A stretch of 64,000 nt of DNA from Escherichia coli (GCF_024298765.1 NZ_CP101211.1); one strand, 5' to 3'; shown: positions 1,785 through 56,155, counted from the first letter of the stretch. Translations and numbers: made by a program. Notes: a model not told the origin generated them from the letters alone.

Positions 1785-2216
1785 TGATGATCTCCTGTCT
1801 TGTGAGAGACCAGTTATATCAGGGTGATTCAGTATTTCCGTTTAGAAAAGAGTACTAATTTGGCCCTGTTCGATCTTAATTTGCCATCCGGGAAAAAGTC
1901 ATAGGGATAGGCCTGCCAGAGTCAATAACTTCCAGTGATCTGGAGGAGACCCCGGCTCTCTGAGCCCTCATGGATGGTACGGCTTTACCCCCTGTAAACA
2001 GATTCACGTTCCGCAGGACAAACATCGACTACTGACGTCTCATATTTGCTGACGCTAATCCGACGTCTCATTGCCGTCTGCTTGTTTTCTTTAAAGGGTG
2101 TATTAGACGAATATCAAATCGGAATGGTAGGGGATGTGTGGGCACCATGCCCGGCCCTCTTTGAGCATCTGAGAGATTGGAGACCTAGCCGGGTAAGATA
2201 GCTACTTTCTTACGGG

Positions 2217-2585
2217 TTACCCTTCAAATCCAAAGACGAAACGGACGCTGCCGTTCTCCACGTGGAGACGCTTTACTTCTTCGACAAATTCCTGGATCAC
2301 CTCTCCGGCGTTATCGGGTGGTATGGCTGACAAAATTTCTTCCGAAGTCAGCCATGAGTATGAATGTTCACCGAATAAATCATCATCTTCGGACGGTATA
2401 TCATCAGGTAATCCGCGTAATGCGTGGATAAAAACTGCTGATGTGCTCGCCCTTTCACGATCTACATCAAATCCGAGCCAGGCAAAGTGGAGATATGATC
2501 GGTCCCCTTTATAATTGCTTGATAAATTAATCCATTTACCAGGCTTTTCTTCCCTTTGAAATCGCCAGCAGATATCAACGCCCAT
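2217..2585 (-). CDS. hypothetical protein (122 aa)
   Basis: ORF in co-directional gene string; acidic, no recognised domain. Confidence 0.45.
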   Translation of the reverse strand: MGVDICWRFQREEKPGKWINLSSNYKGDRSYLHFAWLGFDVDRERASTSAVFIHALRGLPDDIPSEDDDLFGEHSYSWLTSEEILSAIPPDNAGEVIQEFVEEVKRLHVENGSVRFVFGFEG

Positions 2586-2749
2586 TAAGAAACTCCATTA
2601 CTATCGTTCGTATGAGATAACTATCATTTCAGAATACTATGACTTCTTCCCGTATAGAACTAATCGCTCACGCCAACTGGGCGAAGCCAACCGGTTCCGC
2701 CACTTCGCTCATTGGTTTTTAGGCGTAAGCACTGAAGCCAGTCTCCATG

Positions 2750-3292
2750 CTAACTGGCGAGCCTGCGAAAGTCAGACTCGTTGTTATAAAGCGGCATATC
2801 GTAAGCGGTGTCTGAAATGAACATGCGGATCTGCTCAAGCGTCATGCCACAATGAAAACGGTTTACGCTCACATTGGCCCGGGGGAAGTCAGCACAAAAC
2901 GCATTCAAAACATTTTCATGGACAATGCCAATGTTGATCAACGCAGCTGGCCCGTTGTCACGGAAGGATACGACACGGAATCCCCCATACCAGCCTGAAT
3001 GGGAGAAAAATGAAAATGCGCCGGATGCCAGACCATTAGACAGGTCATAGCGCAATTTCCCGCACAGAGACTGGCTGTCTTTGCTGTACACGCGATTAAT
3101 GAAAATACCGGGACCAACTTCTACCGGCTGCTTGTTGCTTGCTAAACACGGAAAGCCCACCAGCGAAACCTCCCTTTCTCCTGACCAGTTTACCTGATAC
3201 CCGGCAGTGAGAAAGTCCGTCAGTTCTACGCCAGAAAGAGCATTAATGGCCGCGATATCGGTAGTCAAAATATTTACGTTTTTCATATTCAT
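2750..3292 (-). CDS. hypothetical protein (180 aa)
   Basis: ORF in co-directional operon. Confidence 0.5.
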   Translation of the reverse strand: MNMKNVNILTTDIAAINALSGVELTDFLTAGYQVNWSGEREVSLVGFPCLASNKQPVEVGPGIFINRVYSKDSQSLCGKLRYDLSNGLASGAFSFFSHSGWYGGFRVVSFRDNGPAALINIGIVHENVLNAFCADFPRANVSVNRFHCGMTLEQIRMFISDTAYDMPLYNNESDFRRLAS

Positions 3293-5062: not shown

Positions 5063-6247
5063 TCATGACTGTCCCTTGTTCATCTTATCAGCATGCTTAC
5101 GCAGGTACTCTTTCAGGTCAGCATGAGCGTTGATGATATCGTTCATTTCATCATTGGTCAGAACAAGCGTGTAAGTATCAGTACTGACAGATTCACCTTC
5201 TTTAAGCTTGGCTTCTTCAGCAATACGTTCAAAAATCGGGATCGCGGTGTCTGCAATGACGGTCACAGTCTTTTTGTTCAGAACGCTGGACATGGAAGGT
5301 GCTTTACCTGCCGGGTTCTGTTTAGGAGCGCTGTCCTTTGGAGCTGGAGCCGGTTCCTGTACCGGTGGCGTATCCAGCGTCTCCGTATTGCTTTCATCGT
5401 TCAGTTGATCCGGTACCGGGGTGTTATCGGTAGTATCATCTGCCGGTTGCTCAGCACCGATGTTTTCCGGAGTCTGCGGATCTGCCATGCGCTCTTCTAC
5501 CTTGGCAGCTTTGACGAATTTCAGCGTGTTTTTCGTCGCCTTGCCATAGATGGAGATCGCTTTGTTGATGTTATCTACCGCATCCTCACCGCTGTACATA
5601 TACTCGTCCAGTGCAACGTACATGCTCACCTGATCGCTCACAAGCATGGTCTGTAGTTCAGAAGGCAGGTCCAGTACGCGAACCATCTGGCGAAGATGCT
5701 GCTCTGATTTACCACGTTTTTTTGCCAGTTCCGCAAAGGTCTTAGGCTCTTCTTTATCTTCAACCAGACGCTTAATTGAAAGCGCTTCAGCTACGACAGA
5801 CAGCGCCAGGTTGGAGTTGCCGGTCAGGGTGAAGAGTTCTGCTTTTGAAGCGCTACCGCGAAACTCTTCGCAGCGAATACGAGTAATGCGTTCACGCCCT
5901 TCTGCTTCCAGCTGGCGGTTTGCAATAGCGATGGAACGGATACGGCAAGCCCCCTGACGCAGTACAGGTACGCCATTAACCATCTGAACAACGATAGGCG
6001 TCACGCTGAACGGGTCTTCCATGTAGGCATCGGCCAGGCTGTTCAGGTGTTCCACAACGTGAGGCATTGAATAGTAGAGCTCGCCCATACCGGCCGTGCG
6101 GGTGTTAAAGCCTTCCTGCTCTACAACAACCGAAGGGTCAATGATAAGGCCGTTGCCTTTACGGGCACCGTTACCAGTGCGTTCCAGGTAACCACGAAGG
6201 CTGATTTCGTTGCTGTTGTTTTTTACTTCAGTTTCGATTGCGGACAT
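5063..6247 (-). CDS. ParB-like nuclease domain protein (394 aa)
   Basis: ParB/Srx-type N-terminal box (GVPVLRQGACRIRS, compare paralog VRQGHCRLK at 58095..59258); Pro/Asp-rich acidic linker; two palindrome copies upstream. Confidence 0.75.
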   Translation of the reverse strand: MSAIETEVKNNSNEISLRGYLERTGNGARKGNGLIIDPSVVVEQEGFNTRTAGMGELYYSMPHVVEHLNSLADAYMEDPFSVTPIVVQMVNGVPVLRQGACRIRSIAIANRQLEAEGRERITRIRCEEFRGSASKAELFTLTGNSNLALSVVAEALSIKRLVEDKEEPKTFAELAKKRGKSEQHLRQMVRVLDLPSELQTMLVSDQVSMYVALDEYMYSGEDAVDNINKAISIYGKATKNTLKFVKAAKVEERMADPQTPENIGAEQPADDTTDNTPVPDQLNDESNTETLDTPPVQEPAPAPKDSAPKQNPAGKAPSMSSVLNKKTVTVIADTAIPIFERIAEEAKLKEGESVSTDTYTLVLTNDEMNDIINAHADLKEYLRKHADKMNKGQS

Positions 6248-6315
6248 TTTTGTTCTCTTTTTTGGTTGGTTGTTTAACTGCGCTACAACACAACAATACC
6301 AGGTTCGACATTTTT

Positions 6316-6326
6316 CCTAATAGGTT
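6316..6326 (-). promoter_or_regulatory. CCTATTAGG element adjacent to palindrome, candidate -35 region for ParB-like gene
   Basis: variant of the GGTTATTAGCC element; 16 bp upstream of a TATTGT -10-like hexamer on the minus strand. Confidence 0.35.
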
Positions 6327-6335
6327 GCGGAGAAG

Positions 6336-6350
6336 AAAAAGTAACTTTTT
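6336..6350. promoter_or_regulatory. AAAAAGTAACTTTTT palindrome copy
   Basis: exact palindrome ~90 bp upstream of ParB-like start. Confidence 0.5.
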
Positions 6351-6462
6351 TTAAAAATTTTCCTGAGGCAATACTACTCGATCCGTCCGTTTTAAATCTT
6401 CACAACAGTGGGCCGTTTTTACGTTTAAGCAAAATAACTGGTTCAGAAGGTGACTCAGAGAG

Positions 6463-6475
6463 AAAAGTTACTTTT
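6463..6475. promoter_or_regulatory. AAAAGTTACTTTT palindrome copy
   Basis: second copy ~215 bp upstream of ParB-like start, with the extended form ...AGAAAAGTTACTTTTCCGG. Confidence 0.5.
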
Positions 6476-6662
6476 CCGGTTGTCTGGGCCAGTGATGGGA
6501 GAGTGGCAGGACAGGAATGGCTAAACCGGTGCGGGTCTCTTGTAAGTCGCAGGGGATTCAGGAGATATAGAGGTAAACTGGTACGTTCAGTTTTTGGATT
6601 GAGCCGGGCTTTTGGCCCGGGCTTAAGGAAGCAGAAATTTGAACGAACTGGCAGGTAATGCT

Positions 6663-9964: not shown

Positions 9965-10003
9965 AAAAGAAAAAAGGGTTCCTCCGCTTTAGAGGAACCC
10001 TTT
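9965..10003 (-). terminator. intrinsic terminator
   Basis: minus-strand stem AAGGGTTCCTC/GAGGAACCCTT followed by TTTTCTTTT. Confidence 0.55.
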
Positions 10004-10039
10004 CAAAAGGTGCCGATGGCATACTAATCCACACCCTGA

Positions 10040-10063
10040 AAAGAGGGGGGTTGCCCCCCTCTT
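10040..10063 (-). terminator. hairpin at hok 3' end (terminator or fold-back element)
   Basis: stem AGAGGGGGG-ttg-CCCCCCTCT just 3' of the hok stop codon. Confidence 0.45.
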
Positions 10064-10069
10064 TGTCAG

Positions 10070-10228
10070 CTACTTACCGGATTCGTAGGCCAGGATAGCA
10101 AATACCTCCCTTGTTCCGTCTTTCATCCGCAACTCGCAAAGCGAGTTTCGTGTGAGCCAGGTGAATATCAACAGCGTTAAACAAACTATTAATATGCACA
10201 AAACAATGGGTTGGTTCGGCATTTTCAT
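10070..10228 (-). CDS. hok: Hok-family membrane toxin (52 aa)
   Basis: [52 protein letters not shown] closely matches plasmid Hok ([26 protein letters not shown]). Confidence 0.85.
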
Positions 10229-10285
10229 GGCCTTCTTCTCCTTGCATTTAAGCAGGCAAGAGGCTACGCTGTGTGTGACTAGCAT
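10070..10285 (-). CDS. mok: Mok, in-frame N-terminally extended reading frame overlapping hok
   Basis: 71-aa frame with ...KEKKAMK junction as in MokC/Mok. Confidence 0.65.
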
Positions 10286-10326
10286 ACAGGGGCCTCGGGT
10301 TGTACTGACCCCAGAAAGTTGGACAG

Positions 10327-11178
10327 TTAAACACGAGGCATATAGGTCTGATTCCGATATTCAATTGGAGTCAGACCTTTTAATTTCAGGCTAATTCTTC
10401 TGCTGTTGTAGTATTCAATATATTCCGTAACAGCATCCTTCAGCTCGCTTATATTACTGAACTCATCAAGATAAAAACACTCCGACTTTAAGGTTCCAAA
10501 GAAACACTCCACCACAGCATTATCCAGACAATTGCCTTTTCTGGACATGCTTTGTTTAATACCATGTTCTTTAAGGATATTTTGATATCTTCTCATACGA
10601 TACTGCCATCCCTGGTCAGAGTGCAGAACAGGATGCTCGTGAGGATTAAGCTTTTTGAATGCCTGATCGAGCATATTCTCGACCATGTTCATCACTGGTC
10701 TTTCCGAAAGGCTGTAAGAAATAACTTCGTTGTTGAAGAGATCTATTACTGGAGACAAATACAGCTTGCGCCCATTGACTGCAAATTCAGTAACATCGGT
10801 AACCCACTTCTCGTTTGGCCGCGTAGCCTTGAAATCTCTTTGGAGAACATTGGGGGCGGTTTGCCCTACCTCTCCTCTGTAAGAGCGGTATCGCTTGACC
10901 TTAATCGCTGCCTTCAGTGAGAGGATTCCCATCAGGCGCTGAACAGCTTTATGGTTAATCTGTTTCCCTTCTCGATGAAGAGACAGCGTTACCCTACGGT
11001 ATCCGTATCGGCCTCTATTCTCATGATAAATCTCACCAATACGCTTTTTAACGTCCGCATACTTGTCAGGCTTGCTGAGAGCCTTTAGATGGTAATAAAA
11101 CGTACTGCGCGGTATCTCCGCAGCCCTGAGAAGCTCATCAAGAGGATAAAACTGCCTTAGCTCGTTGAGTACTTTCAC
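10327..11178 (-). CDS. insK: IS150 transposase OrfB (InsK)
   Basis: 283-aa IS3-family DDE transposase matching IS150 InsK. Confidence 0.95.
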
Positions 11179-11696
11179 TTTTTCGTGGGATGAGCTAAGG
11201 CTTTCAGCTTTTTTAGATACACAAGCCGCGTTTCAAGAAATCGAACTTGCCTTTCAAGATCCTCAATGCGTCGGTCTTTTGACAGCTCCAATGCTGATGC
11301 CGCTTTTTCTGGATCAACTGATATTGCAATGTTTCTTTTGGTGCCAATCTTGAGCGCGCGTAAACCAGCTTCTCCGCGCTCTTCATAAACCTTCAGCCAC
11401 CTGGCTACAGAACCACTACCAGCAAGCATAAAGTGAGCAGCAGCCTGATTAAGGGACATGTGCTGCTCGATCACCGCTTTCACGACCTTAATACGCAACT
11501 CAGGATCAGCACTAACACCTTTAGGTTTGGGAATTAAACCTTTTTCTCCATGTTTTTCATAGAGGGCAACCCATGTCCTGACCTGGGTTCGGGGGACACC
11601 AAAACGTGCCGAGATGATCCTGTAACCATCATCAGTAGTGAAGTAGTGATTCACGACTTCAAGGCGCTTTTCAAAAGGGTATTTTGGCTTTGACAT
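11175..11696 (-). CDS. insJ: IS150 OrfA (InsJ)
   Basis: 173 aa beginning MSKPKYPFEKRLEVVNHYF, matching IS150 InsJ. Confidence 0.95.
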   Translation of the reverse strand: MSKPKYPFEKRLEVVNHYFTTDDGYRIISARFGVPRTQVRTWVALYEKHGEKGLIPKPKGVSADPELRIKVVKAVIEQHMSLNQAAAHFMLAGSGSVARWLKVYEERGEAGLRALKIGTKRNIAISVDPEKAASALELSKDRRIEDLERQVRFLETRLVYLKKLKALAHPTKK

Positions 11697-11836
11697 ATCA
11701 GGGGCTATTCCATTTCATCGTCCAACAAAATGGGTGCAGTACAGGTTAATTGAAAAATTACTCGGGGCTTTCTGCTTTTACCACAGTCAAACAGTGTTAC
11801 CGCTGGCTGGGGCAAAAGCCTCCAGCACCAGCGTCA

Positions 11837-11863
11837 TTATATCACTCTGCCCTGATCAGCCAA
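11837..11863 (-). promoter_or_regulatory. putative sigma70 promoter (original hok promoter, now separated from hok by IS150)
   Basis: minus strand TTGGCT-N16-TATAAT. Confidence 0.35.
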
Positions 11864-12849: not shown

Positions 12850-13131
12850 TTACTCTTTTTCCTGCATAGCGGCTTTTTCAGCCCGGGTGGCCAGGCGAGC
12901 ATTTCCGAAAGGTTCACGGACAAGCAGGGGCTTCTCCTTCTTCCAGCCCCTGATAGCCGTTTCTCCAAAACGACGTGGTGCATTGCCGTTCCAGCGAGCA
13001 ATCACATGATTATCATGAATTTCTATAATGACAACGGGGTGGACAATGACCGTTGTAATGGTGGTATTTCCCATTTTGGTACGGGTTACAGACCAAACCT
13101 GCATCCCGGATTCCAGCTGGCTGATTTTCAT
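12850..13131 (-). CDS. hypothetical protein (93 aa)
   Basis: ORF with AAGGA RBS; competing overlapping frames are less protein-like. Confidence 0.35.
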   Translation of the reverse strand: MKISQLESGMQVWSVTRTKMGNTTITTVIVHPVVIIEIHDNHVIARWNGNAPRRFGETAIRGWKKEKPLLVREPFGNARLATRAEKAAMQEKE

Positions 13132-15806: not shown

Positions 15807-16003
15807 AGGCTTACTCTCCCTCTTCAGTGGACAACATCAGATACTTTGTTGCCAGCAGAAGCTCTCCCACATCCTTGAGGGACAATTCAGCTTTGCCTTC
15901 TACGGCAAGCTGCAAGCGCTGTCGAATTGCATGAACAGAATCTGAAGATAAAGATGCCATTTTGCGCAAAACGGCATTAGCCTTTTCTGGTAATGACTCC
16001 AAC

Positions 16004-16507
16004 TTATTGATAGTGTTTTATGTTCAGATAATGCCCGATGACTTTGTCATGCAGCTCCACCGATTTTGAGAACGACAGCGACTTCCGTCCCAGCCTTGCC
16101 AGATGTTGTCTCAGATTCAGATTATGTCGCTCAATGCGCTGAGTGTAACGCTTGCTGATAACGTGCAGCTTTCCCTTCAGGCGTGATTCATACAGCGGCC
16201 AGCCATCCGTCATCCATACCACGACCTCAAAGGCCGACAGCAGGCTCAGAAGACGCTCCAGTGTGGCCAGAGTGCGTTCACCGAAAACGTGCGCCACAAC
16301 TGTCCTCCGTATCCTGTCATACGCGTAAAACAGCCAGCGCTGACGTGATTTAGCACCGACGTAGCCCCACTGTTCGTCCATTTCAGCGCAGACAATCACA
16401 TCACTGCCCGGTTGTATGCGCGAGGTTACCGACTGCGGCCTGAGTTTTTTAAATGGCGGAAAATCGTGTTGAGGCCAACGCCCATAATGCGGGCTGTTGC
16501 CCGGCAT
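16004..16507 (-). CDS. insB: IS1 InsB
   Basis: matches IS1 InsB. Confidence 0.9.
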
Positions 16508-16701
16508 CCAACGCCATTCATGGCCATATCAATGATTTTCTGGTGCGTACCGGGTTGAGAAGCGGTGTAAGTGAACTGCAGTTGCCATGTTTTACGGCAG
16601 TGAGAGCAGAGATAGCGCTGATGTCCGGCGGTGCTTTTGCCGTTACGCACCACCCCGTCAGTAGCTGAACAGGAGGGACAGCTGATAGAAACAGAAGCCA
16701 C
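16426..16701 (-). CDS. insA: IS1 InsA
   Basis: [30 protein letters not shown]... matches IS1 InsA. Confidence 0.9.
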
Positions 16702-16948
16702 TGGAGCACCTCAAAAACACCATCATACACTAAATCAGTAAGTTGGCAGCATCACCGCCTTTTCTACAGCAGGATACAGAATTTCTGAGTTGGTATTATC
16801 TTCGTCATTATCAAAGATAATTTCAGAATCCATATTGATGTTATCTTCAAGCCAGCTTGAAAGCACTTCAAGTAATGACATCACCTTTTCAATTTGCATA
16901 TCGCCTCCTCTGTTAATGTGAAACAAATATAACAAAGTGGCTTACCCG

Positions 16949-16963: not shown

Positions 16964-17414
16964 AGAAAGTTTTCGCACTTTGTTTGAAAACAACTTTTCT
17001 GCTCAGGTTAATGTTAAAGTCGCTGTGTAAAAGATAAAGGGCACTAAAGATGATTTAAGCATCAAACAGACTAAATCGGATTCCGTCTTTTATATCGCTT
17101 TTAAAATAGAATGAATGAAATATAAATTTAGCGTTTATGATTGAACGCTGTAGAGGTTGATTTATCCAGTGATATTCAGTTTGGGGCCTTAAAAAGGTTT
17201 TATTTTGGATTCGAATTACAAAGGGAGCACCGACATTTTTCTGGGGGCTCCCGCAGAGAAAAAGCGGTGAGGCTATGAAGACGAAGAGGAGGTATTCGAC
17301 GAAATACTGTATGGCCACAGGAGAGCTTCAGCACCCATATCCTGCCGTCTCGCTCGCCTGTAATGATTTCAACATGTACAACGTCATACCACGTAGTTGT
17401 ATTTCTCACTTTGT

Positions 17415-34947: not shown

Positions 34948-35081
34948 GGGTTGTCTCCTGATCAGGTTCCCCATGATACTTTTTCAGTGTTCGAGATCTT
35001 TTCGGGAAAATAGCTAATTTTAATGTTTTTCTTTTCTGCCCGGCGGGACTTGTTTTGTTTACGTAAATGCAAAAATACAAG

Positions 35082-35095
35082 AAAAGTTACTTTTT
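35082..35095. promoter_or_regulatory. AAAAGTTACTTTTT palindrome copy followed by TGATAG
   Basis: ~110 bp upstream of paralog 1; extended match to the copy at 51259. Confidence 0.5.
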
Positions 35096-35350
35096 GATAG
35101 GGTTAAAATTAGGTTTTCCCAATTTCCAGAAGCAAGCGAAAGCAGAACTAGCTTAATAGCCATTAAAAACGCCATGCCTATTGATAAATAAAGCTCATTA
35201 CATTTAATGATTAGAGCATTTAAAACTGAATTAGCGAAAGAATTTCGGTTAGCTTTTTATTGCATGAGTGAAACAGTATTAATAATCCGGAGCCATCAGA
35301 ACGTACTCTAAAGACTCCGGTATACAGATATCTTGCCAGTAAAAATGGCC

Positions 35351-35602
35351 TTACTCCTCATCATCCCCCAGCGCTTTTTTGATGGCGCGGCGGCGGGCTG
35401 CATCACCTACACGATATCCGACTGAATATACGTCATTCAACCGGCGCAGAATAAGATTTATTTCCTCATCCTGAATGTAGGCAGGTAAACACAGAACTAC
35501 GTCGCCATCTTCATCATAGACTCGAACAACTTCCTTCTGCCCATCTCGCTCGCGAATAATCTGGACATGCTGAACCCTGGTGTAATCTGGGATTACGCTC
35601 AT
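35351..35602 (-). CDS. hypothetical protein (83 aa)
   Basis: ORF. Confidence 0.4.
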   Translation of the reverse strand: MSVIPDYTRVQHVQIIRERDGQKEVVRVYDEDGDVVLCLPAYIQDEEINLILRRLNDVYSVGYRVGDAARRRAIKKALGDDEE

Positions 35603-35809
35603 TTTAAATATCTCTCTTTAATTGTTGTTACCAGTTAGCTATAAGCCGGTTTATTCAGGTACTCAGTGTTCTGCACAGCAATCGCCTGTTCGTGGATCAT
35701 TAACACTGCTGGGCGGGCTTTAAGGCGCTTGCTGGTGAGAAAACGCTTCACTTCTTTAAGTTCGCTGCCAGCCGACAGCATATTGAAGACATGCTGTTTG
35801 AGACTGTTG

Positions 35810-36067
35810 TTATTTTTGGCCACTTGTTTCTCCATCATCTTTGTACATGGTTGTGTCGGGCTGGCCTGCCAGATCACACACGTTATCCATATGCTTTTGG
35901 ACCCAGTCTGTTAGACCCAGGCCTTCGGCCTTTGCCTGATTGACGTAACGCAGTTTCCGATCAGGGGTAACCCGCATCTGTAGTTGTGCCGTCGCTGGAA
36001 CCGCCTCTTTCAGGGCGTTAAGGCCCCTCTGATCACGGGCCTGATTTGATGGTTTACCGTTTGGCAT
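35810..36067 (-). CDS. putative ribbon-helix-helix DNA-binding protein (85 aa)
   Basis: paralog of 9046..9402 (QLQMRVTPDRKLRYVNQAKAEGLGLTDWV). Confidence 0.4.
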   Translation of the reverse strand: MPNGKPSNQARDQRGLNALKEAVPATAQLQMRVTPDRKLRYVNQAKAEGLGLTDWVQKHMDNVCDLAGQPDTTMYKDDGETSGQK

Positions 36068-36491
36068 CTGAGGTATCGCTCTCCCGGCGAGCGGTGGACG
36101 ACTCTAATTCTTTTGCGATTGCTTTATCTACGGCATCCAGCTGCATAGCAAACTTGATTTCAAGCGAACAGCGTAATGCCTTCAGGGCGCGTTCTTTGGT
36201 GCTGTATTGTGGTATGCCGTTCTGGCTACCATTCATGCCTCGCATGCGGCGGGAGGTTGCATCGACAACCTCTCCCTCTTCCCGTGTGCCGTGAACCGTA
36301 GTTCCGCTCCATGTCGGATAAACAGTGCCAGTGGCGGTGTTGAAGCTCCAGCCGTTTTGGTATTCCCCCGAGACCTCTGGTACGGGCATATCGCGTTCAA
36401 CGCTATAGTCAGACCAGCGTAAAGCGCGGTTTATTCTGGCCTGTGCCACCAGCTCATCATAGGCGGCTTGTTCTTTTTTATTCATCGCCAT
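36054..36491 (-). CDS. hypothetical protein (145 aa)
   Basis: ORF. Confidence 0.45.
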   Translation of the reverse strand: MAMNKKEQAAYDELVAQARINRALRWSDYSVERDMPVPEVSGEYQNGWSFNTATGTVYPTWSGTTVHGTREEGEVVDATSRRMRGMNGSQNGIPQYSTKERALKALRCSLEIKFAMQLDAVDKAIAKELESSTARRESDTSDAKR

Positions 36492-36594
36492 TTAGGGCAA
36501 TCTCCTTAAAGGGGAATTAGGTGTTATATCGGTACGTAAGTGCTTTTCAGGCCTAATCTCTGACAAGGCCTGATGTGCCAGACTGCCGTTGCAT

Positions 36595-37119
36595 TCACCG
36601 TTTTATGGCGGTTGACTGAGCCTCATTAAGAGCCGCAATTAGTTCAGGCGAAGTCGGCTCCAGATTTTTGGAAGCGTTCAGCAGCTCCTTAAGTGAAGAG
36701 ATTTCCTTTGGCTCTACCTGGTTTGCTTCAGGAGCCGTTTTTTGAACTTCATCCAGAGTACGCTGTGCACCGTTATCCAGCACCAGCACACCCCCAGCAC
36801 GAATTTCTGAAATGGTGCGCACCGTATACATCATTTTATCCCAGACACGGCTACCAACCTCGATCCCGGAATCAGCTACTTTTTTTTCATTATGCTTTTG
36901 AAAAATTTCTTCTAACCATGTGGTGAAGCGCTTTCCAAAAGTATTGGCGGCTAAAGAAGTGCAGGAATAAACCTGTTCGACCTGTTTTGTTCCATTTTTA
37001 TCAGTGAATGTAATGAGACCGATTCGTCCACTGTTAACAGTGTAAAAGCGAGGTTGAAAGCCAGCTTTGAGAAGGTTTTCAATAGCTGAAAAAAAATCTT
37101 TTTTGAGCATCGGTTTCAA
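36595..37119 (-). CDS. hypothetical protein (174 aa)
   Basis: ORF. Confidence 0.5.
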   Translation of the reverse strand: MKPMLKKDFFSAIENLLKAGFQPRFYTVNSGRIGLITFTDKNGTKQVEQVYSCTSLAANTFGKRFTTWLEEIFQKHNEKKVADSGIEVGSRVWDKMMYTVRTISEIRAGGVLVLDNGAQRTLDEVQKTAPEANQVEPKEISSLKELLNASKNLEPTSPELIAALNEAQSTAIKR

Positions 37120-43377: not shown

Positions 43378-43421
43378 TGTTGTGGTCAAGTTTTTTTGGA
43401 CACGCCGATCAGATGGTAGGG

Positions 43422-44662
<1,241 letters not shown>

Positions 44663-44680
44663 TTAAATTTGACCACAACA

Positions 44681-51410: not shown

Positions 51411-52037
51411 ATGTTATACATGCTCTTATGCTGTTTTCTGATGCTCAACAGTACATTCGTTATGTTCAGAGCAATGTCTGCAATAAGTAAAGGATCCGCT
51501 AAAGAAAACCGGTCTGAAATATCGCTGATAGTCCTAGCAACACTTGGAATCGCATCACCATTCATTGTCGCAATGATTACTATTAATGAAAGTATGACAT
51601 CTAAAACAGTAACAGATTTTTCTTTGGGTGCTCAGTGGTACGGAATGGTTTCAGCGGTAGCGCTAATGGGGTTATATGCTCGACGCGTTTGGAAAGAGAA
51701 GAAGTCCTTATTTACTGGCGCTTTCCTGGCCTCTTCCTTAATGGCCTTTATTTTTACTGACAGCCTTGTTTTCGTATCCCAGAAGGACACCGGCGTTCTG
51801 GCTACTTTCGTACTCGATAAAAACGCTGGAGATATTGATTGTAGTCGCCCGGCTATGATTGTCCATTACAGTAAAGGTGTTCCAACGGACTGGCGTTGCC
51901 CAACCAGTATCATGTTGATGGCGTATTCTTCATATCCTTTTTTACCCTGGCCTGAGTATAGCCATGGTACCAGCCAGTCTCTTACGGTTGTTATTGATAC
52001 ATTTATGGAAAACGCTGTTAATCTCAGCCAAAAATAA
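51411..52037 (+). CDS. integral membrane protein (208 aa)
   Basis: multiple hydrophobic segments; followed by terminator. Confidence 0.5.
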   Translation: MLYMLLCCFLMLNSTFVMFRAMSAISKGSAKENRSEISLIVLATLGIASPFIVAMITINESMTSKTVTDFSLGAQWYGMVSAVALMGLYARRVWKEKKSLFTGAFLASSLMAFIFTDSLVFVSQKDTGVLATFVLDKNAGDIDCSRPAMIVHYSKGVPTDWRCPTSIMLMAYSSYPFLPWPEYSHGTSQSLTVVIDTFMENAVNLSQK

Positions 52038-52043
52038 AAAATA

Positions 52044-52068
52044 AACCTCACTAGTGAGAGGTTTTATA
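52044..52068 (+). terminator. intrinsic terminator
   Basis: stem AACCTCACTAGTGAGAGGTT followed by TTAT. Confidence 0.5.
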
Positions 52069-52130
52069 AACCTGAGCCACCAATCTAATTAACTCTATAT
52101 TTTTGTTTTAGCTTTTTTAAAGATAGACTT

Positions 52131-53186
52131 GGCTTTGTTGAATAAATCGAACTTTTGCTGAGTTGAAGGATCAGATCACGCATCTTCCCGACAACGCAGA
52201 CCGTTCCGTGGCAAAGCAAAAGTTCAAAATCACCAACTGGCCCACCTACAATAAAGCCCTCATCAACCGTGGCTCCATAACTTTCTGGCTGGATGATGAA
52301 GCTATTCAGGCCTGGTATGAGTCGACAACGCCTTCATCACGGGGAAGACCTCAGCGCTATTCTGATCTCGCCATCACCACCGTTCTGGTCATTAAACGCG
52401 TGTTCAGGTTGACCCTGCGGGCTGCACAGGGTTTTATTGATTCCATTTTTACACTGATGAATGTTCCGTTGCGCTGCCCGGATTACACCAGTGTCAGCAA
52501 GCGCGCAAAGTCGGTTAATGTCAGTTTCAAAACGTTCACCCGGGGTGAAATCGCGCATCTGGTGATTGATTCCACCGGGCTGAAGGTCTTTGGTGAAGGC
52601 GAATGGAAAGTCAAAAAACACGGCAAAGAACGCCGTCGTATATGGCGAAAGTTGCATCTGGCAGTTGACAGCAACACACATGAAATCATCTGTGCAGACC
52701 TGTCGCTGAACAATGTGACGGACTCAGAAGCCTTCCCGGGCCTTATCCGGCAGACTCACAGAAAAATCAGGGCAGCCGCGGCAGACGGGGCTTACGATAC
52801 CCGGCTCTGTCACGATGAACTGCGCCGCAAAAAAATCAGCGCGCTTATTCCTCCCCGAAAAGGAGCAGGTTACTGGCCCGGTGAGTACGCAGACCGCAAC
52901 CGTGCCGTTGCTAATCAGCGGCTGAGCGGAAGCAATGCACGGTGGAAATGGACAACGGAATATAACCGTCGCTCGATAGCGGAAACGGCAATGTACAGAA
53001 TGAAGCAGTTGTTGGGAGATTCACTGACGCTGCGTGACTACGATGGTCAGGTAGCGGAAGCTATGGCCATGGTGCGTGCGTTGAACAGGATGACAAAGGC
53101 TGGGATGCCAGAAAGCGTGCGTATTGCCTGAAAATCCAGCCAGCTCCAGGGTCGTTCGCACGAAATCTTATTTATTCAACAAAGCC
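52131..53186 (+). mobile_element. IS903/IS102-like element (IS5 family), no target duplication detected
   Basis: 18-bp terminal repeats GGCTTTGTTGAATAAATC; flanking 9-mers GATAGACTT and CATCTCATC differ. Confidence 0.85.
52163..53131 (+). CDS. IS903-type transposase
   Basis: near-identical over long stretches to IS903/IS102 transposase as recalled. Confidence 0.9.
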   Translation: MKDQITHLPDNADRSVAKQKFKITNWPTYNKALINRGSITFWLDDEAIQAWYESTTPSSRGRPQRYSDLAITTVLVIKRVFRLTLRAAQGFIDSIFTLMNVPLRCPDYTSVSKRAKSVNVSFKTFTRGEIAHLVIDSTGLKVFGEGEWKVKKHGKERRRIWRKLHLAVDSNTHEIICADLSLNNVTDSEAFPGLIRQTHRKIRAAAADGAYDTRLCHDELRRKKISALIPPRKGAGYWPGEYADRNRAVANQRLSGSNARWKWTTEYNRRSIAETAMYRMKQLLGDSLTLRDYDGQVAEAMAMVRALNRMTKAGMPESVRIA

Positions 53187-53447
53187 CATCTCATCTTCTA
53201 ACACGCTTCGGTAAATGGTCTTGGCCGAGAGTGTGCCCGGTAACGAGTACTCAACATAATTGTTTGAAACTCTTACCGATTTAGGGATTTTACCACTGAG
53301 CTGGGTTTCATTCGTTGAAGGCATTACAGTTACTTTAATCACAGTTGCCGGTGACCAGAAATCCTGATAACGCACTTTATGAATTTTATCAGCTCTAAGG
53401 CCTAACGTAAGCGTGCAGTGAGAACCGTATTGACGAAGTGAAGCTGG

Positions 53448-54983
53448 TCAGGCAGGCAGAGTAACCCGCCACGGGAGCAGAGCACCCACCCGGTTCACAG
53501 GCCAGTCGGCGATGACATCAAGTACATGATGCAGATAGCGTTCCGGATCCACGCCGTTTAATTTGCACGTCCCGATAAGACTGTACAGTGACGCACCGCG
53601 CTCACCACCATGATCCGAGCCGAAGAACAGCCAGTTTTTTCTCCCCAGACTGACCAGTCGTAGGGCGTTTTCGGCAATGTTATTATCCACCTCCACCCAG
53701 CCATCTTCTGCATAGCGGGTCAGCGCCGGCCACTGGTTCAGCGCATACCCGAACGCCTTCGCCAGTTCTGAGTGCCTTGAGAGGGTTTTCTGTTTCTCCC
53801 GCAGCCACCCCTCCAGTGACGCCAGCAGCGGCAGCACTTTTTGGTGCCGGACTGCCTGCCGTTCCTCTGCTCTTTTACCTCTGAGCTCCGACTCGATGGC
53901 ATACAGCTCGCCGATCCGTTTCAGCGCCTCCTCCGTCAGGGCTGACGGGGTACGGACGTGAACATCGTGGATTTTTCGGCGGGCATGGGCCCAGCACGCG
54001 GCTTCCTTTATATGGCCGTCGCGGTAGAGCTCGTTGAACCCGGCGTAGGCATCAGCCTGCAGTACGCCACTGAAGCCTGCAAGATGGGTCTGAGGGTGGA
54101 TACCTTTTCTGTCCGGGCTGTAAGCGAACCACACTGCGGGGGCCAGCGCTGATCCGGCGTTGCGGTCGTCTCGAACGTACGTCCATAAGCGCCCGGTCTT
54201 CGTCTTCTTATTGCCTGGCAACAGCACCGGGACAGGCGTATCGTCAGCATGGAGTTTGCCGTCGGTCAGGACATAGTGCTGAAGGGCTTCATCCAGCGGT
54301 GCCAGCAGACGACAACACGCATCCACCCAGCCCGACAGTACAGAACGACTCAACACTACACCCTGGCGGGCATAGATCTCCGACTGGCGATACAGCGGTG
54401 TGTGCTCTGCATACTTTGAGGTCAGCACTCGGGCCAGCAGCCCCGGTCCGGCGATCCCCCGTTCGATGGGGCGCGAAGGAGCCGGGGCCTGAACGATGCG
54501 ATCGCACCGACGGCAGGCATGCTTTTCACGGACTGTCCGGATAACCCGGAAGGCGCTGCGCATCAGCTCCAGCTGTTCGGCGGCATCCTCACCCAGGTAA
54601 CTCAGCGAACCACCGCACTCCGGGCAACACGGCTCAGTCGGCAGCAGCCGCTTCTCATCCCGTGGGAGTGACTCAGGGAACGGTTTGCGGGTGCGGGTCT
54701 GACGCAGCGGGCGCTGCACTGCCGGGTCATCCACCCGGCCGGTCAGCGTATCGCTTTCCTGCTGCAGCAGGTTCAGGTCAGCTTCCATTTGCGCGATACG
54801 GCGGGATACCTTTTCGGAACGACTGCCGAAGTTCATCCGGCGCAGCTTATCCAGTTGCGCCTGCAGATGGTCTATTTCGCGTTCCCGGTTGCTCAGCTTT
54901 TCCTGCAGGGCGTGGATCAACGCTTCCTGTTCGGCCAGGCGCTGTTTCAGCAGAAGGATGTCGTCAGAAGAGGTGTCGTTCAT
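53448..54983 (-). CDS. IS66-family transposase TnpC
   Basis: 511 aa with zinc-finger CPECG...CRRC and leucine-zipper N-terminus typical of IS66 TnpC. Confidence 0.9.
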   Translation of the reverse strand: MNDTSSDDILLLKQRLAEQEALIHALQEKLSNREREIDHLQAQLDKLRRMNFGSRSEKVSRRIAQMEADLNLLQQESDTLTGRVDDPAVQRPLRQTRTRKPFPESLPRDEKRLLPTEPCCPECGGSLSYLGEDAAEQLELMRSAFRVIRTVREKHACRRCDRIVQAPAPSRPIERGIAGPGLLARVLTSKYAEHTPLYRQSEIYARQGVVLSRSVLSGWVDACCRLLAPLDEALQHYVLTDGKLHADDTPVPVLLPGNKKTKTGRLWTYVRDDRNAGSALAPAVWFAYSPDRKGIHPQTHLAGFSGVLQADAYAGFNELYRDGHIKEAACWAHARRKIHDVHVRTPSALTEEALKRIGELYAIESELRGKRAEERQAVRHQKVLPLLASLEGWLREKQKTLSRHSELAKAFGYALNQWPALTRYAEDGWVEVDNNIAENALRLVSLGRKNWLFFGSDHGGERGASLYSLIGTCKLNGVDPERYLHHVLDVIADWPVNRVGALLPWRVTLPA

Positions 54984-55032
54984 AAGCCTGTATTTTACCA
55001 GGCTTATTCTGCGACAACCAGGATAAAGAGCG

Positions 55033-55380
55033 CTACAACATGGTCAGGGATGTCAGTAACCGCTTTGGCTGTCGCCAGTCGATACCTTCCATCAGCATCG
55101 CCAGTTGCGCCGGCGTCAGGAACACTTTGCCATCGCGGGCTGAGGGCCAGGCGAAGCGACCACGTTCCAGTCGCTTTGTCAGCAGGCACAGACCATCGCC
55201 GGTGGACCAGAGCAGTTTTACCTGACTGCCGCTGCGTCCCCGGAAGATGAAGACGTGGCCGGACATCGGGTCATCTTTCAGCGCGGTCTGCACCTTTGCG
55301 GCGAGGCCATTGAAGCCGTTGCGCATATCGGTGATACCGGCAACCAGCCAGATTTTTGTGCCTGCGGGAAGATTTATCAT
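55033..55380 (-). CDS. IS66-family Orf2 (TnpB)
   Basis: 115 aa, typical IS66 Orf2. Confidence 0.85.
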   Translation of the reverse strand: MINLPAGTKIWLVAGITDMRNGFNGLAAKVQTALKDDPMSGHVFIFRGRSGSQVKLLWSTGDGLCLLTKRLERGRFAWPSARDGKVFLTPAQLAMLMEGIDWRQPKRLLTSLTML

Positions 55381-55760
55381 ACAGGCCCCCGCATCAGTTC
55401 GCGCAGGACAGTGCTCATGAGTTCAGCAGAGGGATGAGTCAGTGTTATTTCTCCTCCCCGACATTTTATGTGGCAGGTAGCGGGAGGAGAGCAGGATGGT
55501 AGTTCGAAGGTTGGGAGAGAAGAGCCCGCCTGAAGCTGCACGGGTATCAGGGCAGGAAGCGACGATGAGTTTTTTCGGGGCCGACAGACCCGCCCTTCAC
55601 GCTGCCAGAGCCTTATCCATTTAAAGAGCAGGTTATCATTGACGTCATGTTTCCGGGCCAGTGCGGCAATACTGCCTTCTTCTTCAAGAGCCAGCCTGAC
55701 CAGTTCCATTTTGAATTCAGGGGAATAGTGTTTCCGGGGAAGTCTTTCTTTAGCGCGCAT
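55377..55760 (-). CDS. IS66-family Orf1 (TnpA)
   Basis: 127 aa HTH protein overlapping Orf2 by 4 nt. Confidence 0.8.
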   Translation of the reverse strand: MRAKERLPRKHYSPEFKMELVRLALEEEGSIAALARKHDVNDNLLFKWIRLWQREGRVCRPRKNSSSLPALIPVQLQAGSSLPTFELPSCSPPATCHIKCRGGEITLTHPSAELMSTVLRELMRGPV

Positions 55761-56155
55761 GAGGTGTCCACCTGCAAAATAAGTGGGTGCTTAAGTTACA
55801 GGATCCTGGATTCGGGACCAGACGGTACTCAGACGACGCTTACGGCCTAACCACACATTTCCGGCGATAAGAACAATAAGCAATCCATAAACTGATCGTC
55901 GAATGTTACGCCTTTTAATCACAATGTCCCCCATCCCTCAAATATCATTCTAAATAACTGCACCAGGATATCATGAGCGTAATTAATAGAATTCTTCATA
56001 ACCGGGGTTTTCAGTTGAGTTTGCGGACTCTTTACTTTGCGGTTTCTCACCCTCTAGTTGAGTATCCCTGACAGGCTTGGATTTACCCATGCTCCTCTGA
56101 AAGGTATCCATAACAAACTCAATATCTTCTTCTGGCAGGCTGGTGGGTTGGTTGC

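Follow-up and report, generated by a model that had tools for sequence, protein, structure and literature searches.

The closest described relatives of the locus analysed here are the hok/sok (parB) module of plasmid R1 and flm of plasmid F, in which a promoter, tac, ucb (the anti-SD box), the sokT hairpin, the mok Shine-Dalgarno (SD) sequence, mok, hok, dcb, fbi and a terminator follow one another in a fixed order. In R1, the mok SD is GAGG, at G105/A106 of the mRNA (PMC9841398), and the target of sok spans mRNA nucleotides 65-131 (PMC3562002). Several chromosomal hok loci are disrupted by insertion sequences (IS): in Escherichia coli K-12, IS186 lies downstream of hok at hokC (gef) and hokE, and IS150 lies within the hokA locus. 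During evolution and in mutation-accumulation lines of E. coli B, IS150 has hot spots at trg/mokB and mokC/nhaA (PMC5289635, PMC5419217, PMC4301190), the first of which was named as a hot spot by the authors (PMC5289635), and similar IS150 insertions have arisen in other evolution experiments. Both IS disruption of hok and the IS150 hot spot are already known; what is new here is a widespread natural example.

We analysed a stretch of 64,000 nucleotides from E. coli (GCF_024298765.1, NZ_CP101211.1), referred to below as the window, in which a mok/hok gene pair lies next to a copy of IS150 (Table 1). The original prediction assigned this pair to an accessory element, which can now be refined to an IncHI2 conjugative plasmid. 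Some IS differences aside, the window is collinear with the IncHI2 plasmid 803-DB-mcr, and most of it matches that plasmid at 99.9-100% identity. Read in the sense of hok, the hok/sok features all lie on the minus strand of the plasmid backbone. We consider it likely that this is an IncHI2 hok/sok post-segregational killing locus broken by a single IS150 insertion at a recurrent landing site in the hok leader and, as part of the same explanation, that IS150 is present through target preference rather than through anything special about the plasmid. The event is ordinary and probably disabling, a known kind of IS disruption and no new system.

Table 1. Positions of hok/sok and IS150 features, counted from the first nucleotide of the window
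Feature	Position	Strand	Remarks
hok mRNA terminator hairpin and U-run	9965..10004	-	hairpin at 10004..9972, then T-run; terminator scan and mRNA fold
fbi element UCGGCACC	10009..10016	-	partner of tac in the fold of the restored mRNA
G6-CAAC-C6 hairpin	10046..10059	-	just 3' of hok; intact in the window
mok ORF	10070..10285	-	71 codons, intact; hok in frame, hok ATG at 10228
Retained sok promoter TTGCAT-17-TACGCT	10242-10270	+	homology to the F/R1 sok promoter region
Retained 5' part of Sok, ~23-30 nt	~10271/10278 to 10300	+	complementary to mok AUG and SD
mok SD region CGAGG	10293..10297	-	adjoins IS150 downstream; anti-SD partner now gone
Target duplication, copy beside mok	10298..10300		GGT on the plus strand, ACC in the hok sense
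IS150	10301..11743	-	1443 bp; transcribed in the direction of hok
insK	11178..10327	-	intact; OrfB scores 348 bits on NCBIfam IS3 transposase model NF033516
Terminator-like hairpin in IS150 right end	10344..10387	+	15-bp stem (hairpin 10344-10378), then T-run TTTTAATTT; scan and chimeric RNA fold
insJ	11696..11175	-	intact, within IS150
Target duplication, copy on leader side	11744-11746	-	GGT on the plus strand; last 3 nt of the displaced leader
Displaced 5' leader, +1 to +86	11744..11829	-	RF01794 positions 1-~84, F flm alignment, mRNA and Sok folds
Original hok promoter TTGGCT-16-TATAAT, TG extension	11836..11863	-	promoter scan, 10/12 matches; points into IS150 left end

The toxin side of the locus is intact, as had been predicted. 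The mok frame contains hok in frame and extends it, and the 52-residue Hok protein aligns from end to end with model NF007279 (residues 1-52 of 52; 122.8 bits, cut-off 73). The mok frame has an SD of its own, GAGG, upstream of its ATG, an arrangement that would couple its translation to that of hok. Both of the hairpins proposed for the 3' end of the transcript are present, the second followed by a run of T.

The boundaries proposed for IS150 agree to the nucleotide with what we find: exactly 1443 bp with GGT on either side, separated from the mok ATG by exactly 15 nt (10286-10300). The size of about 1.44 kb, the imperfect terminal repeats starting TGTACTG, the 3-bp duplication and the overlapping insJ and insK frames identify the element as IS150 of the IS3 family. 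Of its 1443 positions, 17 differ from the K-12 IS150, and in RefSeq an identical copy is labelled as an IS150 family transposase. The left inverted repeat faces the hok promoter and the right one adjoins the mok SD. In coordinates of the hok mRNA the insertion point is +86/+87, in ...UUAACC^CGAGGCC..., directly 5' of the mok SD, so that the IS lies near the hok frame but outside it and parts hok from its regulatory elements. On the far side of the element, about 1.5 kb from mok/hok, a promoter scan recovered the TTGGCT-N16-TATAAT promoter that had been suggested as the original hok promoter. It ends 6-7 nt before the start of the Rfam hok-leader model and is conserved in the empty allele.

When IS150 and one copy of GGT were deleted, the resulting 1155 bp were 100% identical to uninterrupted IncHI2 alleles, such as that of pAPEC-O1-R. 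Because of this identity, the two flanks were once one locus and not a chance pairing, which bears out the earlier view of the region as a broken hok locus. The Rfam sok model RF01794, which follows the orientation of hok, starts at mRNA +1 and stops at the hok AUG. Its gathering score is 59, which the empty allele exceeds with 81.1 bits. In the window, model positions 1 to ~84 match at 11830..11747 (46.7 bits) and positions ~85-157 at 10297..10226 (34.4 bits). Neither half reaches the gathering score, because IS150 splits the locus, and no contiguous leader is left. An Rfam scan at the gathering threshold found no match anywhere in the 64-kb window, and a second hok/sok copy that might supply Sok in trans was rejected within the window on this basis.

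The restored allele has the same elements in the same order as R1 hok/sok and F flm. It is 77% identical to F flm over the whole module, including all named elements, and in the alignment the cut falls after the anti-SD box and before the mok SD. In the predicted minimum-free-energy fold of the restored mRNA (419 nt), nucleotides 1-8 (GGUGCUGG, tac) pair with nucleotides 368-375 (UCGGCACC, fbi) and ucb pairs with the mok SD, an architecture that is also that of the R1 hok mRNA (PMC9841398). Both pairings are found within an mRNA of about 0.4 kb in the restored allele but not in the window, where 1443 bp lie between the partners. The likeness to R1 and F extends to Hok, which belongs to the same NCBIfam family, and to the tac/fbi pairing, which shows compensating base changes. 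There are also differences. Here mok and hok share one reading frame, as they do at chromosomal mokC, whereas by our own reading of the flm alignment the mok of F is in another frame, and the -10 element of the sok promoter is weaker by consensus than in R1 and F.

What IS150 separates can be read from these comparisons. The displaced leader holds tac (GGUGCUGG), the early hairpins, ucb (AAAGCCCCG) and most of the sokT stem-loop, and its opposite strand holds the Sok stem-loop and U-rich 3' end. The hok promoter, tac, ucb and the Sok stem-loop with its terminator are now about 1.45 kb away, and the hok side has kept the mok SD, mok/hok, dcb, fbi, the terminators and the sok promoter with ~23-30 nt of Sok. 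The converse arrangement, with sok and the full leader intact on the hok side, was not seen; the split of RF01794 and the F flm alignment agree on this. The proposal that hok has been uncoupled from both its promoter and sok is correct for the hok promoter and for the Sok stem-loop and terminator, all of which are displaced, and has to be amended for the sok promoter and the first ~23-30 nt of Sok, which stay beside mok. There is thus no complete sok gene: its promoter and beginning lie at 10242-10300 and the rest from 11744 onward. The exact Sok start and promoter are presumably those given in Table 1, which we assigned by homology and from the R1 sequence. Native Sok is predicted to begin with a short unpaired 5' tail, to form a long hairpin and to end in a U-rich tail; IS150 cuts the hairpin.

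With this anatomy, the normal hok mRNA of ~0.4 kb, with its tac/fbi closure and 3'-processing switch, should no longer be able to form, and production of native Sok would be impossible after the split. Since neither RNA could be made, the locus would no longer be a regulated killer module and would persist as a tolerated relic. From the arrangement of the sequence we infer that regulated killing has been lost. Against inactivation stand the hok frame, the mok SD and the mok AUG, all of which are fully intact.

The parallel drawn earlier with the silencing of K-12 hok genes by IS elements proved closer than claimed. In K-12 hokA, as in the window, IS150 stands between the promoter and sokA on one side and mokA/hokA on the other, and one of its boundaries lies at most 1 nt from the homologous position, immediately 5' of the mok SD. 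The hokA copy is inverted and has no target duplication, whereas the window copy is co-oriented with hok and has a clean duplication. In hokA a 38-bp deletion has also taken both the SD and the ATG of mok, along with part of the sok promoter region, whereas in the window mok is intact. The IS186 insertions at K-12 hokC and hokE resemble a second insertion found in sister IncHI2 plasmids, in which the G6CAACC6 hairpin 3' of hok is occupied by IS421 (IS186-like, 1337 bp), which parts fbi from the gene; the equivalent insertion at gef has been described (PMC3562002). This IS421-type insertion is absent from the window, where the target hairpin is intact. Sister-plasmid loci have also received an ISNCY element at the hok start codon and an IS481-family element between the IS and hok.

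Insertions at the same place recur independently in other plasmids. The Enterobacter IncHI2 plasmid p3804_mcr carries ISKpn8, with 81 mismatches to the window IS, and has the ACC duplication seen in the window. An IncF plasmid with an R1-type hok carries an IS150 identical to the K-12 copy at the junction ACCACCA^CGAGGCA, a Klebsiella pneumoniae IncF plasmid carries ISKpn8 at AACCCA^CGAGGCC, and a K. variicola plasmid retains only a right-end remnant of the IS at the homologous place. Throughout this set the position is homologous, the right end of the IS lies beside the mok SD and the orientation is that of the window. In an ST131 IncF plasmid, IS150 is inserted at hok mRNA +6 (GGCGCT^TGAGGC). 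Orientation was identical in all six of the plasmid insertions examined.

The chromosomal record is equally specific. In the E. coli B mutation-accumulation lines, hok loci account for 14 of 45 IS150 insertion entries by our own count (hokB 10, hokC 3 and hokD 1; PMC5289635 dataset S2). At hokC, an insertion at 16972-16974 on REL606 (ACC^CGAGGCC) matches the window in its site, its ACC/GGT duplication and its co-orientation. Seventeen nucleotides upstream, where the sokT hairpin has its other base, the insertions form a second cluster, which is always in the opposite orientation. If the site used in the window is called A and the upstream one B, the association of site with orientation is perfect at hokB and hokC (7/7 and 5/5), the hokB part depending on an inferred mapping: the trg/mokB coordinates are those of the inverted REL4536 genome, not directly readable on REL606, and the 17-nt spacing of the sites together with the reversed gene order fits sites A and B of the hokB leader. 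The strand signs (+/-) of the dataset were read by what we take to be the breseq convention.

Because mutation-accumulation lines are under little selection, this pattern points to target preference. Recognition by IS150 may be based on the palindrome. Local alignments of both IS ends with four hok leaders, compared with shuffled controls, gave only short and inconsistent matches (p ~0.01-0.08 over 16 tests), and we make no claim that the leader mimics the ends of IS150. The hot-spot loci of laboratory E. coli B are chromosomal, whereas the window contains a natural insertion in a plasmid hok gene that has become fixed in a widespread resistance-plasmid lineage. Since site and orientation recur at nucleotide level in plasmids, in chromosomes and in unselected lines, IS-inactivated hok genes can be attributed largely to the target preference of IS150, together with that of IS186/IS421.

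The interrupted allele is far more common than the empty one. In PLSDB, 518 plasmids cover at least 80% of an interrupted 2.6-kb query and 70 have the empty site. A 90-nt query spanning the IS/hok junction gave 547 records with a best match of at least 99% identity, a number that may include half-length matches. Taken together, there are ~520-550 sequenced carriers of the junction against ~70 plasmids with the empty site. The IS150 copy shows 0 mismatches among the window, pSTM6-275 and 803-DB-mcr, which would fit one ancestral insertion that spread with an E. coli/Salmonella IncHI2 lineage.

The abundance of the insertion might instead be adaptive, the silencing of hok benefiting plasmid or host, with target bias and hitch-hiking playing no part; we regard this as unlikely. 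The excess of interrupted over empty alleles among sequenced plasmids, about 7:1, is in its favour, as is the increase of mokB IS150 insertions in selected long-term lines too. Yet site, duplication and orientation recur in mutation-accumulation lines, where selection is minimal, and the plasmids checked all have an identical copy of the IS, so that the excess can reflect clonal spread of one resistance-plasmid lineage combined with biased sampling.

A more general idea, which we put forward tentatively and think doubtful, is that hok-family leaders carry conserved, orientation-specific landing sites for IS150/ISKpn8 flanking the sokT palindrome, with IS150 acting as a safe 'off switch'. Site A may lie just 5' of the mok SD and receive an IS co-oriented with hok, and site B may lie just 3' of the anti-SD box and receive an anti-oriented IS, the left end of the IS possibly pointing toward the palindrome in both cases. 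In killing-proficient plasmids, it may be that only the co-oriented outcome at site A, or an insertion in tac, survives. In the site-A outcome the hok promoter would be lost, and the sok promoter, the 5' tail of Sok and a borrowed IS150 terminator could together make a chimeric antitoxin covering mok. If true, hok modules across IncHI2, IncF and chromosomal loci would have a built-in off switch.

That the module has been rewired and is still live seems improbable to us. Under this explanation mok/hok would be transcribed by read-through from the hok promoter or an IS150 promoter and silenced by a chimeric antisense RNA of ~110 nt, comprising the 5' tail of Sok and then the right end of IS150 and stopping at the internal hairpin of the IS. 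IS150 is co-oriented with hok and a terminator scan found no sense-strand terminator-like site between the hok promoter and mok, either across IS150 or after it, so a long read-through mok/hok transcript is possible; such a transcript could have tac and fbi at its 5' and 3' ends, respectively, and the mok SD and AUG on it would be intact. On the other strand, the sok promoter is intact and could still direct a chimeric antisense RNA covering the mok SD and AUG. As the IS150 hairpin faces inward, it could act here as a terminator for antisense transcripts from the sok promoter. The chimeric RNA is predicted to start with a 5' tail of 14 unpaired nucleotides and to continue with a hairpin and a 15-bp terminator stem that leads into Us, and the title of Thisted et al. 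(1994) states that Sok works via a single-stranded 5' leader. The orientation shared by the six plasmid insertions is also in favour of this explanation. However, the mok side has lost the anti-SD box and the normal setting of tac. For killing, the toxin mRNA must be stable and the antitoxin unstable, and we see no sign that the chimeric pair keeps this asymmetry. Sister plasmids have acquired further IS elements that remove fbi or hok, as expected of a dead locus, and target preference explains the shared orientation equally well, the unselected lines following the same orientation rule.

Activation of hok, with mok/hok expressed constitutively from a promoter, outward or hybrid, at the element's right end, is extremely improbable even though the right ends of IS3-family elements can supply an outward -35 element and only 15 nt lie between the IS and the mok ATG: the promoter scan found no site at the IS/mok junction and inspection by hand nothing usable, in that no hexamer at the -35 position agrees with the consensus at more than 2 of 6 positions and the sole -10-like hexamer (TATGCT) overlaps the mok ATG, from where a transcript would lack the mok SD and AUG, and unrestrained Hok would be lethal, yet the junction is present in more than 500 sequenced plasmids.

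Inactivation of an IncHI2 hok/sok locus by IS150, the reading we prefer, matters for the biology of these plasmids. The IncHI2 lineage comprises major resistance plasmids that carry mcr-1, oqxAB and CTX-M, and most of its sequenced members hold a split, probably dead hok/sok, which leaves fewer candidate systems to account for plasmid stability. The most useful by-product of the analysis is the set of nucleotide-level, orientation-specific IS150/ISKpn8 landing sites in plasmid and chromosomal hok leaders, and the recurrent hok site provides a defined sequence on which target choice by IS150 can be studied.

Our literature search found no paper on an IS150 insertion in the IncHI2 hok locus. IncHI2 typing papers used PCR with R1-type hok-sok primers and scored plasmids carrying IncHI2 only as negative, and other literature that joins IncHI2 and hok concerns hipAB. 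The IncHI2 hok homologue is annotated only as an isolated 'Hok family toxin' next to an IS150 transposase.

In many sister IncHI2 plasmids, the hok locus carries not only IS150 but also IS421, an IS186-like element of 1337 bp that is present, for example, in pSTM6-275. IS421 sits in a G6-CAAC-C6 hairpin directly 3' of hok, with a 13-bp overlap or duplication at the site, and in those plasmids it cuts off the 3' fbi element and the terminator from hok. This arrangement resembles that of K-12 hokC, where IS186 likewise parts fbi and the terminator from the toxin gene. The window contains the hairpin, and IS421 is absent from it.

Additional IS elements were also found in hok loci already struck by ISKpn8. 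On the Enterobacter IncHI2 plasmid p3804_mcr, an ISNCY element starts exactly at the hok start codon, and on the Klebsiella pneumoniae IncF plasmid pKlebA1, ISKpn8 and hok have an IS481-family element between them. This accumulation suggests either that the locus was already dead or that it is a general magnet for IS elements.

Among the 5425 complete Escherichia coli genomes with a match to the chromosomal hokA query, 2825 had at least 80% of the query covered in one place; in the remainder, the locus seems to lie in two separate pieces, as it does in K-12. The K-12 hokA locus carries IS150 together with a 38-bp deletion that removes the mok Shine-Dalgarno sequence (SD) and ATG, and there is no target duplication. 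In mutation-accumulation lines of E. coli B, IS150 insertions also occur at hokD and at ldr, a type I toxin locus (chaA/ldrC) (PMC5289635, dataset S2). The same dataset lists further repeated IS150 sites at yfcC (2334207, twice), ynjI (910345, twice), rhaS and cycA, and there are therefore several sharp IS150 hot spots.

Within the window, the mok SD region CGAGGC (10292-10297) has an inverted-repeat partner, CACGAGGC, in the right end of IS150. Folding predicts that a hairpin would sequester the mok SD, or its complement, in both a putative read-through RNA and a putative chimeric antisense RNA. The inverted repeat may be a coincidence.

Features of the window and of related hok loci
Feature	Location	Strand	Remark
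CACGAGGC	window 10331-10338		insK C-terminal codons, IS150 right end
G6-CAAC-C6 hairpin	window 10046-10059		IS421 target
IS421	pSTM6-275 (L001) about 5255-6600		insertion
ISNCY element	p3804_mcr (L009) 2245-2400		at hok start codon
IS481-family element	pKlebA1 (L012) 1845-3010		
93-aa hypothetical ORF	L001 2170-2451 = window about 12850-13131	minus	upstream of hok locus
IS1, 768 bp	window 15989-16756		InsA/InsB ORFs; missing from 803-DB-mcr
1.9-kb segment	window 35060-36978		unaligned to 803-DB-mcr backbone
IS3-family element, ~1.3 kb	window 43378-44676		OrfA 121 aa, OrfB 292 aa; missing from 803-DB-mcr
4.4-kb segment	window 51443-55837		unaligned to 803-DB-mcr backbone

In PLSDB, the 93-aa ORF bears the label 'Brucella suis mprF, defensin resistance', assigned by RGI with an identity of 100%; this looks like a database artefact because the protein is so small. 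The IS1, the IS3-family element and the two unaligned segments set the window apart from the collinear IncHI2 plasmid 803-DB-mcr. The 1.9-kb segment contains no transposase and encodes only hypothetical proteins. The matches flanking IS1 overlap by 9 bp, fitting a target duplication.
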